Of a stretch of DNA of 52,562 bases, positions 4,148 through 47,747 are shown in pieces. The first letter of the stretch is position 1; every line of letters starts with the position of its first letter. A program made the position numbers and the translations under genes. The DNA is from Candidatus Zambryskiibacteriota bacterium (GTDB lineage Bacteria; Patescibacteriota; Minisyncoccia; Phycocordibacterales; Zambryskibacteraceae). The notes below the pieces were generated by a model that was given only the letters and a program-made list of their open reading frames with translations, ran no database searches and was not told where the DNA came from. The DNA lies in assembly GCA_016180955.1 (NCBI GenBank), contig JACPAD010000004.1, positions 1 through 52,562 on the forward strand. The letters run 5' to 3'.

Positions 4148-4939
4148 TTAAGAATTTCCCCTTAAATAGTCCTGCCAATCCATCTCGCGCTTGCCTTCTG
4201 GGATTATTCTAGTTGGGACAAATTTTCCATCTTCTACTTTTGCATCTTTAACTATCACGCGGAGATCTTTACCTATTTTGTTTTTGAAGAAGAAGTAAGC
4301 GCCGGGCCAAGTGTTGTAAGCGAGCACTTTTCGGTAATTTGTTTCGGCGGGATCATTTAAATTAAGCAGTCCGTCTTCTTTTCTTATCATCTTGGTATAG
4401 GTTGCCCTCGAGTCATCTTGTGGGATCGGATTAGGTAAGTTTGACAAAGTGCTGACTAAGAGTTTGCCGCCGGCATGAGCCAGCTTTTCCTCAATGGTTG
4501 CATAGTGGTCAAGCCACGGTTCTATCTCGACCTTCTCTTGCGCGAGAATCGGCCCGTGGTCCATTTTCTCGTCCATTTTTATAATAGTGACTCCCGGCTC
4601 GCCTCGGCCCAGTATTAAATTTTGAATAGGGGATGGTCCGCGTAGTTCCGGCAGGAGTGAGGGGTGCACATTGAGAGAGCTATATTTAGGAATATTGAGA
4701 GTTTCTTTAGAAAGAATCTTGCCGAAAGAGGCAACGATGAAGAAATCAACTTCCGGCAATTTAGGCAATGAGGCTTTCGCATCAATAACCTTGAGAGTAG
4801 GAAAGAACCCAGCTTGCTCCAATTCTTCCAGTACAAATTCCGAAAACCTCGAGCTACCGAAGAATACGAACTTGATTTTGCTATTCTTAAATCCTAAGTC
4901 CTGCTTGCCCATCGTAGCTTTAGCGAAGTCGGGAATCAT
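4148..4939 (-). CDS. fmt: Methionyl-tRNA formyltransferase (compact)
   Basis: FVFFGSSRF, VASFGKIL, LNVHPSLLPELRGPSPIQ, MDEKMDHGPIL, WPGAY; next to def. Confidence 0.93.
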   Translation of the reverse strand: MIPDFAKATMGKQDLGFKNSKIKFVFFGSSRFSEFVLEELEQAGFFPTLKVIDAKASLPKLPEVDFFIVASFGKILSKETLNIPKYSSLNVHPSLLPELRGPSPIQNLILGRGEPGVTIIKMDEKMDHGPILAQEKVEIEPWLDHYATIEEKLAHAGGKLLVSTLSNLPNPIPQDDSRATYTKMIRKEDGLLNLNDPAETNYRKVLAYNTWPGAYFFFKNKIGKDLRVIVKDAKVEDGKFVPTRIIPEGKREMDWQDYLRGNS

Positions 4940-5466
4940 AAATCTTTCTCCGGAGGTAAGTCACGGATGTTCTCCGCCTTGTCTGTAAAAAGTATGCCGT
5001 TTAAATGGTCAATCTCATGCTGGAAGATTTGGGCCAAGAGACCGGAGGCCCCGACAGTTACGGCTTTACTGCTTTCGTCATACGCTTTGATTATCACTTT
5101 CTCGTGCCGCAATACTTGGCCGTAGAGCCAGCGTACCGAGAGGCAACCCTCTTCCACCCCCTTTTTCTTTTTTGAACTTTTGATAATCTCCGGATTGATA
5201 AAAACTAAATCATTAAGTTCTTTAGTCGGGTCAACCTTTTTCTTTTTTACCATCGCCAGTGCCTCGCCGCTTACCACGAAAATTCTCAAGCTAATGCCTA
5301 TCTGCGGCGCGGCAATAGCTACTCCGTCTTTCTCGGTGTGGAGTGCCCTTTTCATCCTGGTTATAATACTCCCAATCTTTTTAGACCCGATATCCTTAAG
5401 AGGTACGGGCTTTGCAATCTTTCTTAGTATCGCCGCATTTTTACCGACTATTTGTAGTTTCGTCAT
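4936..5466 (-). CDS. def: Peptide deformylase
   Basis: GVAIAAPQIG, EGCLS, QHEIDHLNG motifs. Confidence 0.96.
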   Translation of the reverse strand: MTKLQIVGKNAAILRKIAKPVPLKDIGSKKIGSIITRMKRALHTEKDGVAIAAPQIGISLRIFVVSGEALAMVKKKKVDPTKELNDLVFINPEIIKSSKKKKGVEEGCLSVRWLYGQVLRHEKVIIKAYDESSKAVTVGASGLLAQIFQHEIDHLNGILFTDKAENIRDLPPEKDL

Positions 5467-44947: not shown

Positions 44948-46869
44948 AATAATTGGCATCGATCTGGGCACGACCTTTTCTGCGGTAGCAGTGATGGAGG
45001 GCGGTAACCCTAAAATTCTCGAGAACACCGAGGGCGCGCGCACTACTCCATCTATCGTCACTATCTCAAAGACAAATGAACGCTTGGCAGGCCTTCTCGC
45101 AAAACGTCAGGCGGTAACCAATCCGAAGAACACCATCTTCGGCATCAAGCGCTTCATCGCGCTTCATCGGCCACACTTTCTCCGACCCTGCGGTACAGAA
45201 AGACAAGCAGACGGTGCCGTATGAGGTAAAGACGGGTCCGAACGGCGGAGTGTTGGTCAAAATGGGTGATAAAGATTATCGTCCAGAAGAAATTTCGGCT
45301 ATGATTCTCCAGAAACTCAAGACCGACGCCGAAGCCAAGCTTGGAGAGAAAGTGAGTGAGGCTGTCATCACCGTGCCGGCTTACTTCAACGACTCTCAAA
45401 GACAGGCTACCAAAGACGCGGGCCAAATTGCCGGGCTTGAAGTGAAGCGCATCATCAACGAGCCGACCGCAGCAGCATTGGCTTACGGCTATGGGAAGAA
45501 GCCCCGACGCCCTGATGGGGTCGGGGTCCCGACCAAAGCATCGGGAAAGAATGAAAAAATTGCCGTCTTCGACTTCGGCGGCGGCACTTTCGACATTTCT
45601 ATTCTCGAAGTCGGTGATGATGTGGTTGAAGTGAAGTCCACCGATGGCGATTCGCACTTAGGCGGCAAAGACATCGACCAGAAAGTCTTGAACTACATTG
45701 CCGAGGAATTCAAGAAAGAGTCCGGCATCGATGTGCGCAAGGATACCTTGGCTCTTCAGCGTCTTGATGAAGCGGCCGAGAAGGCAAAAATTGAACTCTC
45801 TACCGCCACAGAAACAGAAATAAATATTCCGTTTGTAACCTCGGATGCCCAAGGCCCGAAACATCTTTTGCTAAAGATGTCACGGGCTAAACTCGAGGAG
45901 CTCTCGCGTGAATTCGTCGACCGCGCTATGGATATCACCAAGCGCGCCATGGAAGCTTCTCCTTTCAAGATTGACCAGATTGACGAAGTAATCTTGGTTG
46001 GCGGCCAGACGCGTATGCCCATGATTGCCGAAGCGGCTAAGAAGTTTTTTGGCAAAGAACCGAATAAGTCTATCAATCCGGACGAAGTGGTGGCGCTTGG
46101 AGCAGCCATTCAGGGAGGCATTCTTGCCGGAGATGTCAAAGACGTTCTTCTCCTCGACGTTATCCCGCTCTCGCTTGGCATCGAGACTATGGGCGGCGTG
46201 GCTACCAAGCTTATTGAGAAGAACACCACTATTCCTTCTGCCAAGTCCCAAGTCTTTTCTACTGCGGCAGATAATCAGACTTCAGTAGAAATTCATATCG
46301 TGCAGGGAGAGCGCGCCATGGCCTCTGACAACAAATCTCTTGGCAGATTCATTTTGGACGGTATTCCGCCGGCTTCACGAGGCATGCCGCAGATCGAAGT
46401 TACTTTCGATGTCGATGCCAACGGCATTCTAAATGTGAAGGCTCAAGACAAAGCCACCAACAAAGAACAATCTATTCGTATTGAAGCAAGCTCCGGTCTT
46501 TCCAAAGAGGAAGTAGAAAAGATGCAAAAGGATGCCGAAGCTAACGCAGCAGAGGATCAAAAGAAAAAAGAGCTAGTCGATACCAAAAATACCGCAGAGC
46601 AATTAATCTACACTGCGGAAAAATCGCTCAAAGACAATGCCAATATTCCAGAAGATATTAAGATCGGTGTAAATGCTAAGATAGGTGCATTGAAGAAAGA
46701 AAAAGAAACTGGCGCGATCGATTCAATCAAAACTGCGACAGAAGCACTCTCAACTGAAATGCAGAAGATCGGCGAATATATGAGTAAAGTCGCCTCTGCG
46801 CAAGGCTCCGGCGAGCCGAAGCAAAATCCTCCGGAGGGTCCTGATATCAAAGATGCGGAAACTAAATGA
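44940..46869 (+). CDS. dnaK: Chaperone DnaK, frameshifted by a 10-bp tandem duplication
   Basis: GIDLGTT in ORF 44940 and [16 protein letters not shown] in ORF 45214. Removing one GCGCTTCATC (45149-45158/45159-45168) gives a continuous 639-aa frame ([23 protein letters not shown]). Confidence 0.93.
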
Positions 46870-47747
46870 AGAATTACTACAAGATTCTAGGAGTAAATAA
46901 AAACGCTTCTGAAGAAGAGATAAAGAAAGCGTTTAGAAAATTAGCCCATGCTTATCACCCTGATAAATCCGGCGGAGATGAAGCAAAATTCAAAGAAGTT
47001 TCGGAAGCTTACACGGTACTATCGGACAAAAAGAAGCGTGCCCAGTATGACAATTTCGGTTCAGCCACCGCCGGTGGCGGGGCAAGTTGGCAAGGTGCGG
47101 GGTTCGATCCGTCTTCGTTCGGTTTCGATTTCTCTGGTTTCGGCACGACCGGCTTTGATACCGGTGACTTAAGCGATATTCTCTCAAGTATTTTTGGCGG
47201 CCGCCGCGTCCGCCGGGGACGCGACATTGCCGTCGATATCGAGCTTTCTTTCCAAGAATCTATTTTCGGTGCGGAACGTAAGGTAGTAATCAATTCTAAG
47301 TTTGTAAAACAAAAAGAAGTTTCCATCTCCGTGCCGCCCGGTATTGATGATGGCCAGATGATTCGACTTTCCGGCATGGGCGAGACGCTCGAAGGGGGAG
47401 TGCCGGGCGATTTGTATGTCAAAGTGCATGTCAGGAAACACCCGTACCTGCGCAAAGAAGGTTATAACCTGATTATGGATCTCTCCGTCAAACTCTCCGA
47501 AGCACTTTTAGGTAGCGAAAAAACTATTGCTACTTTAGACGGAGAAATTACGCTTAAGGTTCCGTCCGGTATCAAGCATGGCACGATCTTAAGAGTCAAG
47601 GGCAAGGGCGTGCCTCACAACGGAGGCCTTGCCTCCGTTAAAGTCGGCAGGGGTGATCTCTATGTCCGTATTTCAGTCCAAATTCCCGAAAAACTTTCCA
47701 AAGAAGCTAAGAAAATAGTTGAGGAATTGAAGAAGCAGGGATTATAA
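46866..47747 (+). CDS. dnaJ: DnaJ-class chaperone lacking the zinc-finger region
   Basis: J-domain with HPD, G/F-rich linker, C-terminal domains; no CxxCxGxG repeats. Confidence 0.9.

Follow-up and report, generated by a model that had tools for sequence, protein, structure and literature searches.

Probable families of short repeats lying in frame within essential genes of a small Candidatus Zambryskiibacteriota genome

The closest described counterparts of the elements considered here are repetitive extragenic palindromes (REPs) and the REP-associated tyrosine transposases (RAYTs) that accompany them. REPs inside uvrA, uvrB, dnaE, and tRNA-synthetase genes are reported from Opitutus, Thauera, Rickettsia, Xanthomonas, and other bacteria in excerpts of a survey in which intragenic single units and dimers encode 20-30 residues (Di Nocera et al., 2013, PMC3733652). 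The TnpA-REP subclass 2.4, abundant in Cyanobacteria and Bacteroidetes, has REPs inside coding sequence, including the transposase gene, as far as the excerpted description goes (Quentin et al., 2018, PMC6006769). The DNA analyzed here is a stretch of 52,562 nt from Candidatus Zambryskiibacteriota (contig JACPAD010000004.1 of assembly GCA_016180955.1), hereafter the window, which is the entire contig C5 of a 488-kb, 7-contig assembly with an estimated completeness of 85%; genomes of relatives span 0.4-1.1 Mb. Nine short segments in seven genes of the window (fmt, uvrB, uvrA, ychF, leuS, dnaK, and dnaJ) had been predicted from the letters alone to be hairpin-forming inserts read through in frame, and all nine indeed lie inside open frames at the predicted positions.

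The best explanation, to which a probability of about 0.6 is assigned, is that several families of short repeats occupy coding DNA of this ~0.5-Mb genome of the candidate phyla radiation (CPR) type, with different partner genes and with local templated copying. Four classes of element may be distinguished: (a) REP-like palindromes, as single units or inverted doublets, that would be partnered with RAYT-like Y1/HUH transposases, of which the genome has three modules (two in the window), the ychF segment and leuS site 2 being putative doublets of this build; (b) a compound hairpin with a candidate partner in a DUF559 (Vsr-like PD-(D/E)xK) nuclease, of which uvrB site 2 would be a gene-less miniature; (c) the double-hairpin family of dnaK, for which no partner was found; and (d) short motifs without a hairpin, to which uvrB site 1, leuS site 1, fmt, and loosely uvrA may be assigned. 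Within essential genes, copies settle among the codons for surface loops or replace them, staying in frame all the while, and the occupancy of these loops turns over between species. Because ~92% of the genome is coding by the crude open reading frame (ORF) calls made for this analysis, which also underlie every intragenic or extragenic placement given below, only in-frame, stop-free, and tolerated copies can survive. The partner enzymes would copy the units by acting on single-stranded hairpin DNA; patching by homology or microhomology, together with template switching from arm to arm, would replace loop codons and perfect palindromes in place; and the segments would be translated as short flexible loops.

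The hairpin feature is real and beyond chance. Perfect hairpins with a stem of at least 9 number 291 in the genome against ~41 in mononucleotide shuffles. Within coding sequence, 101 perfect hairpins have a stem of at least 10, compared with a mean of 10.8 and a maximum of 15 in 10 synonymous-codon shuffles that hold protein sequence and codon usage fixed; the corresponding counts are 39 against 0.8 for stems of at least 12 and 16 against 0.1 for stems of at least 14. The excess is therefore more than protein sequence and codon usage yield.

Folding of each segment as RNA against 300 mononucleotide shuffles divides the nine (Table 1), so that the predicted hairpins stand at uvrB site 2 (z -5.8), ychF (z -7.3), leuS site 2 (z -5.9), dnaK (z -4.1), and dnaJ (z -4.9) and fall away at fmt (z +0.8), uvrB site 1 (z +0.5), uvrA (z +0.3), and leuS site 1 (z +0.9). 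Host proteins, named by Pfam for LeuRS, YchF, and DnaJ and by conserved orthologs for UvrB, UvrA, DnaK, and Fmt, were aligned with orthologs from up to 30 relatives. The expectation that orthologs would lack the inserts is borne out by four clean additions: uvrB site 2 (+17 aa; no insert in 17/19 orthologs and other inserts at the loop in 2), uvrA (absent in 10/13 orthologs with data, other inserts there in 3), leuS site 1 (in 0/21 orthologs with data), and dnaK (in 0/23). It does not hold for four segments with little or no length change, the fmt segment lying at the def/fmt junction. Among these four, uvrB site 1 adds a net +1 aa, and two orthologs have a different 7-aa insert in its loop, which is missing in three; ychF has the length of hairpin-free orthologs, one of four orthologs (G011) having a related doublet; leuS site 2 brings no net length change, and its loop holds strong hairpins of other sequence families in ~10/22 orthologs; and the dnaJ loop varies in length across 20 orthologs.

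Table 1. Positions in the window of the nine segments, the two palindromes formed over conserved codons, and the two RAYT-like genes.
Feature	Start	End	Strand	Description
RAYT-like Y1 (HUH) gene 1	3316	4046	+	gene 3359-4021; own palindrome at 3316-3342 and 4024-4046
fmt	4900	4934	-	motif-family element at def/fmt junction
RAYT-like Y1 (HUH) gene 2	8300	8987	+	gene 8325-8987; own palindrome at 8300-8324 and 8938-8958
uvrB palindrome	9361	9392	+	perfect 32-nt palindrome over conserved codons, no added residues
uvrB site 1	10262	10285	+	copy of widespread 20-24-nt motif in place of 7-residue loop
uvrB site 2	10583	10641	+	59-nt compound hairpin
uvrA	12140	12172	+	GC-rich insert, +11 aa
ychF	26744	26783	+	inverted doublet: two 13-nt REP-like units, 14-nt spacer
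leuS site 1	28597	28620	+	24-nt insert, +8 aa, contains the cross-phylum 20-mer
leuS site 2	30306	30349	+	inverted REP-like doublet in loop
rpsI palindrome	43053	43089	+	perfect 37-nt palindrome (18-bp stem) over conserved codons, no added residues
dnaK	45502	45546	+	two adjacent hairpins, +15 aa
dnaJ	47615	47645	+	21-nt palindrome with shared flanks, variable-length loop

The further claim that the segments group into several DNA families recurring in unrelated genes survives for eight of the nine, which recur in this genome or in relatives; uvrA, with only 12-14-nt matches elsewhere and a loose likeness to the fmt-type motif family, drops out. A search of the relatives' loci (540 kb) at E <= 0.05 gave no match for the fmt, uvrB site 2, uvrA, ychF, dnaK, and dnaJ inserts. 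The ychF segment and leuS site 2, alone among the nine, are inverted doublets of 13-14-nt units around a 13-14-nt spacer, and half of the leuS site 2 doublet is matched 21/21 at an unrelated locus in a relative. The double hairpin of dnaK has two counterparts of like construction elsewhere in the genome (C7:19018-19065 and C6:~6530-6590), which makes a family of three. The dnaJ palindrome, which recurs five times in the genome, lies where duplicated pieces of genes adjoin; the 132-, 43-, and 31-nt stretches of dnaJ 3' sequence repeated on contig C2 each have it as their left boundary. The fmt element directly follows the def stop codon, at the N-terminus of the fmt frame, so that the start codon and N-terminal residues of fmt likely come from it, and five looser copies of its family, mostly intergenic, lie elsewhere in the genome. 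That variable loops of essential genes hold several distinct repeat families in frame, the core of the original prediction, is thus confirmed.

The partnership of class (a) rests on the Y1 genes. There are three in the genome, two in the window and one on contig C3, all above the Pfam Y1_Tnp cut-off. Both HUH enzymes that had been read from the window are genuine: PF01797 scores above its cut-off for each, both HUH-motif histidines, as well as the tyrosine, are identical in all of 27 aligned proteins from this genome and relatives, and the predicted structure of the RAYT-like protein (predicted local distance difference test score, pLDDT, 90.7) has its best fold match in the Protein Data Bank (PDB) in 4ER8 (E 7e-6; template modeling score 0.65 on the target), the structure of E. 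coli TnpA-REP, a REP-associated tyrosine transposase, followed by IS200/IS605 transposases. The sole NCBIfam match is NF047646, the family of REP-associated tyrosine transposases. All three genes show the REP/RAYT arrangement, with one copy of a gene-specific palindrome on either side; for gene 2 the second copy falls within the 3' end of the gene itself, a likeness, by description, to what excerpts on subclass 2.4 relate (PMC6006769). In relatives, one palindrome stands on both sides in 19/30 RAYT-like loci, with a different palindrome from locus to locus, and genomes of the genus have 0-8 RAYT-like genes (at least one in 15/18).

Ten sites of the C3 module's palindrome are present in the genome, two flanking the gene and eight in seven housekeeping genes confirmed by Pfam: a class II D/K/N tRNA synthetase, GyrB, MiaA, DnaE (a doublet), an M50 protease, ArgRS, and KsgA. 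Across 31 genomes, 9-13 sites occur in 3, 5-6 variant sites in 2, and 0-1 in 26, with no match to the reversed-pattern control, and the palindrome brackets a RAYT-like gene in 4/5 of the genomes with at least 5 sites; these genomes are kin, so that the co-occurrence, examined for this one family, is a pattern rather than an independent statistical test. None of the nine inserts matches any of the genome's three RAYT-flanking families (0/9). The core shared by ychF and leuS site 2 is the core of a palindrome that, at locus L112 from a different genus of the order, flanks a RAYT-like gene; no such link to a RAYT-flanking palindrome was found for the other seven inserts.

The system of this genome thus resembles REP/RAYT systems in its Y1/HUH gene bracketed by its own palindromes, its dispersed solo units and inverted doublets, its one family per module, and its host genes, as intragenic copies in uvrA, uvrB, dnaE, and tRNA-synthetase genes figure in excerpts of PMC3733652. 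It departs from them in that most dispersed copies of the repeats are inside coding sequence rather than extragenic, in having several modules per 0.5-Mb genome and 3-13 copies per family, in RAYT scores far under the NCBI cut-off, in many equal-length replacements, and in its hairpin feet: inspection by eye of the genome's three RAYT-flanking families found no GTAG/CGTC tetranucleotide at the foot, one family carrying it in the loop. No paper on RAYTs, on REP doublets forming hairpins (REPINs), or on in-frame REPs in CPR bacteria was found, although the supplementary lists of intragenic REPs of Di Nocera et al. (2013) and Quentin et al. (2018) may hold closer precedents.

A second comparison is with Rickettsia palindromic elements (RPEs), of which RPE-1 has a length of roughly 100-150 nt. 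The elements described here are set apart on inspection by size (21-59 nt) and by the presence of partner enzyme genes in the genome; what they share with RPEs, as these are cited in PMC3733652 and PMC10969869, is a reduced genome whose essential genes carry palindromic repeats in frame, with extra peptides that are tolerated.

Evidence for class (b) comes from a cassette at C6:49033-49470 with the single DUF559 gene of the genome. In its outer arms and inner hairpin, uvrB site 2 matches both ends of this cassette, of which it appears to be a gene-less miniature. Of 25 DUF559 loci in the order, 20 have within ~120 nt a perfect hairpin that belongs to one recognizable type, and 11 have it on both sides, compared with 5/21 and 0/21 in control windows ~700 nt away; DUF559 genes are present in 12/151 genomes sampled. 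The expectation that insert families flank a RAYT or another nuclease gene therefore holds for uvrB site 2 (DUF559) and for ychF and leuS site 2 (RAYT, in another genus), and finds no partner for dnaK, uvrA, fmt, and dnaJ. In joining both ends of a nuclease-gene cassette without the gene, with shared terminal arms, uvrB site 2 is like a miniature inverted-repeat transposable element; it is unlike one in that the partner is a DUF559 nuclease rather than a DDE transposase, in that the ends are themselves hairpins, and in that no target-site duplication is seen, none being evident in the alignment of filled and empty uvrB, where boundaries are blurred and ancestral loop codons replaced. A literature search for DUF559 in connection with hairpins or mobility returned only a survey of the superfamily, where it is placed alongside Vsr and an intron homing endonuclease. 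DUF559 (Vsr-like) cassettes with pyrimidine-run/purine-run hairpins that shed in-frame, gene-less miniatures appear to be undescribed and, if the reading is true, would add to the HUH transposases another, unrelated enzyme that is paired with hairpins. On contig C6 of this genome, at 48593-49470, inverted compound hairpins bracket the DUF559 gene, and ~440 nt away the hairpin occurs once more, as a directly oriented third copy; the ~340-nt stretch between the hairpins has no convincing ORF and a terminator-like hairpin at its end, and may be an RNA gene.

Class (d) includes a motif of far wider distribution. A 20-mer within leuS site 1 (window 28601-28620), which recurs in uvrB site 1 with one change, is present exactly in at least 120 stretches of species-representative genomes (loci L148-L267), where ~1 match would be expected by chance according to our own estimate. 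Carriers among the matches listed include Acidobacteriota, Pseudomonadota, Planctomycetota, Chloroflexota, Cyanobacteria, Bacteroidota, and many Patescibacteria, cultured isolates being among them. The 20-mer often forms the loop between variable inverted repeats or lies in inverted doublets or 24-nt tandem arrays. No recurrent gene family was found beside it at the 120 loci, the largest clusters having 4 members (ABC ATPases, and class I synthetases with the motif inside the gene). It recurs in a Parcubacteria LeuRS that is only 44-54% identical to this one, with codon position and frame unchanged. This distribution would point to very-broad-host, sequence-directed copying or patching, rather than ordinary transposition, as a possible means of spread. 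No paper was found with the DNA strings of the 20-mer, or with its peptide strings in a relevant sense, and a non-palindromic motif of 20-24 nt that enters the same LeuRS codon position and frame in two distant Parcubacteria appears to be undescribed. The joint claim that DUF559 cassettes shed in-frame miniatures and that the cross-phylum motif is spread by sequence-directed copying or patching is advanced only tentatively, as a conjunction that is on the whole doubtful.

About half of the 20-mer copies lie in long frames, and 35 of these 64 use the leuS frame, which yields a Ser/Thr/Gly-rich peptide. This bias is in keeping with the repeats having a function of their own, either as mRNA or DNA structures that tune the expression or stability of essential operons or as peptide loops selected at the protein level; the retention of hairpins at the LeuRS site 2 loop in ~10/22 species would fit such a function too, as would the speculation, in excerpts of Di Nocera et al. 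(2013, PMC3733652), on a role of REPs in repair genes. It is nevertheless an improbable explanation, given that presence or absence varies among close relatives for dnaK, uvrA, uvrB site 2, and leuS site 1, that the sequence at one loop changes between species while the DNA symmetry stays, that frames and orientations vary among family members, and that an Rfam scan of the window finds one tRNA and no other family.

Not every palindrome of the window was added to its gene. At uvrB 9361-9392 and rpsI 43053-43089, the variable arm mirrors the conserved arm without an insertion or deletion, and orthologs are non-symmetric or weakly symmetric at both positions; perfect palindromes that entail no change in length point to local arm-to-arm copying besides insertion. 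At the GyrB site (+1 aa) and at ArgRS site 1, a family palindrome substitutes for a loop of nearly equal length, and the family that occupies a given loop of ArgRS, DnaE, LeuRS, YchF, or UvrB differs from species to species. A picture of mobile inserts alone does not account for everything. Quasi-palindrome template-switch mutagenesis and short-patch illegitimate recombination produce perfect palindromes and equal-length patches without a transposase, and are described as rare mutations in laboratory strains. They fit uvrB 9361-9392, rpsI 43053-43089, and the replacement-type sites; the products here differ in being fixed and frequent.

These processes might be the whole explanation: palindromes would arise in place, by quasi-palindrome correction through template switching or by arm-to-arm conversion, wherever the protein tolerates them, with no mobile element involved and with the RAYT flanks as further cases. 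Such an account, possible and on balance unlikely, draws on the perfection of the uvrB and rpsI palindromes over conserved residues without insertion or deletion, on the small or absent length change at GyrB, ArgRS site 1, ychF, and leuS site 2, and on the majority of hairpin loci being singletons. It does not readily accommodate identical 21-32-nt units at unrelated loci, a single unit that both flanks a transposase-like gene and occupies housekeeping genes, or a patchy distribution of families that follows the cognate gene; moreover, the clean 24-51-nt additions in dnaK, uvrB site 2, and leuS site 1 have no local template, and 4/9 segments are non-palindromic. Repeat families with partner genes, supplemented by local copying, are preferred to local copying alone.

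An artifact of assembly or binning, in which the inserts would be chimeric joins at repeats in a metagenome-assembled genome, is very improbable. The leuS, dnaK, and dnaJ segments are spanned with 0-2 differences by Logan contigs from two or three samples of one study (runs X1, X2, and X3), which show presence only and the best-matching of which may stem from the assembly's own source sample; long essential frames stay open across all inserts; and inserts of like kind occur in relatives from other assemblies. The point in favor of an artifact is a frame-breaking 10-nt tandem duplication in dnaK of the window, at 45149-45168, which cuts the gene into two frames and is absent from the X1 Logan contig, so that the assembly has at least one local error or minority variant. 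That contig is otherwise identical, and the split of dnaK is thus probably an assembly error or minority variant and not a broken gene. Logan joints around the dnaK insert were discarded because they come from less similar, other organisms and have short sides, and a joint from 28620 to 46791 (runs X3 and X4), with a 23-letter side, was taken as a repeat artifact.

Several observations weigh against repeat families with partner genes as explained above. The RAYT-like proteins reach 24-30 bits with NF047646, far under the RAYT cut-off of 80, and a profile of 27 sequences found no PDB entry by sequence, a single-protein search likewise giving nothing useful. Mobilization of the inserts by the two HUH enzymes of the window, which the original prediction had considered possible, is not supported, both flanking palindrome families being absent among the nine inserts, and the search for cognate enzymes yielded none for the elements in dnaK, uvrA, fmt, and dnaJ. 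Neither a target-site duplication nor a fixed foot tetranucleotide is evident by eye, and simple transposition would not lead one to expect the many replacements of equal length. Most hairpin loci (~420/493) cluster with no other locus, and families are small, with 3-13 copies per genome. Polymorphism between filled and empty sites within one population was not seen in the Logan contigs, which show presence only. Translation of the segments would follow from their open frames, a look-up of RNA data having listed no run that contains the stretch. The assignment of uvrB site 2 to a loop carries little weight, as the stretch is modeled as coil with pLDDT < 50 in a weak UvrB model (mean pLDDT 66.5).

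Other features of the window and genome accompany these genes. In the window at 4148-5466, def and fmt abut as separate frames; in most relatives of the genus (loci L071-L086) the two form one open frame of ~410-490 aa with variable linkers. LeuRS (28080-30809; 909 aa) has a NUDIX domain (residues 345-464) in the region of the editing domain (~322-509), and LeuRS of relatives in the genus, of ~720-770 aa, matches only residues 1-321 and 509-908. On contig C2, positions 9600-13950 form a cluster of gene fragments with three copies of the dnaJ palindrome and two additional pieces from the 5' part of a gene recognized by eye as exonuclease III-like, a full copy of which lies at C2:8100-8894. A restriction-modification cluster at 23419-25894 of the window comprises a cytosine-methyltransferase-like ORF (by eye), an NgoFVII-type PLD nuclease, and a Vsr mismatch endonuclease. 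Families of AT-rich short repeats, with many copies genome-wide at gene ends and between genes (e.g., window 40471-40493, 41165-41186, and 42862-42878), are unrelated to the GC-richer hairpins.

REPs in genes for repair, replication, and tRNA synthetases are already published, and the main phenomenon described here is an extension of that knowledge rather than a discovery. Tolerated loops in essential proteins would offer selfish or self-copying DNA a way to persist without non-coding space. The link to DUF559 and the cross-phylum motif are testable leads to copying mechanisms besides RAYT. Both the annotation of CPR genomes and phylogeny based on alignments are affected, in that loops may be derived from repeats and not homologous, and the finding bears on the origin of new protein segments.

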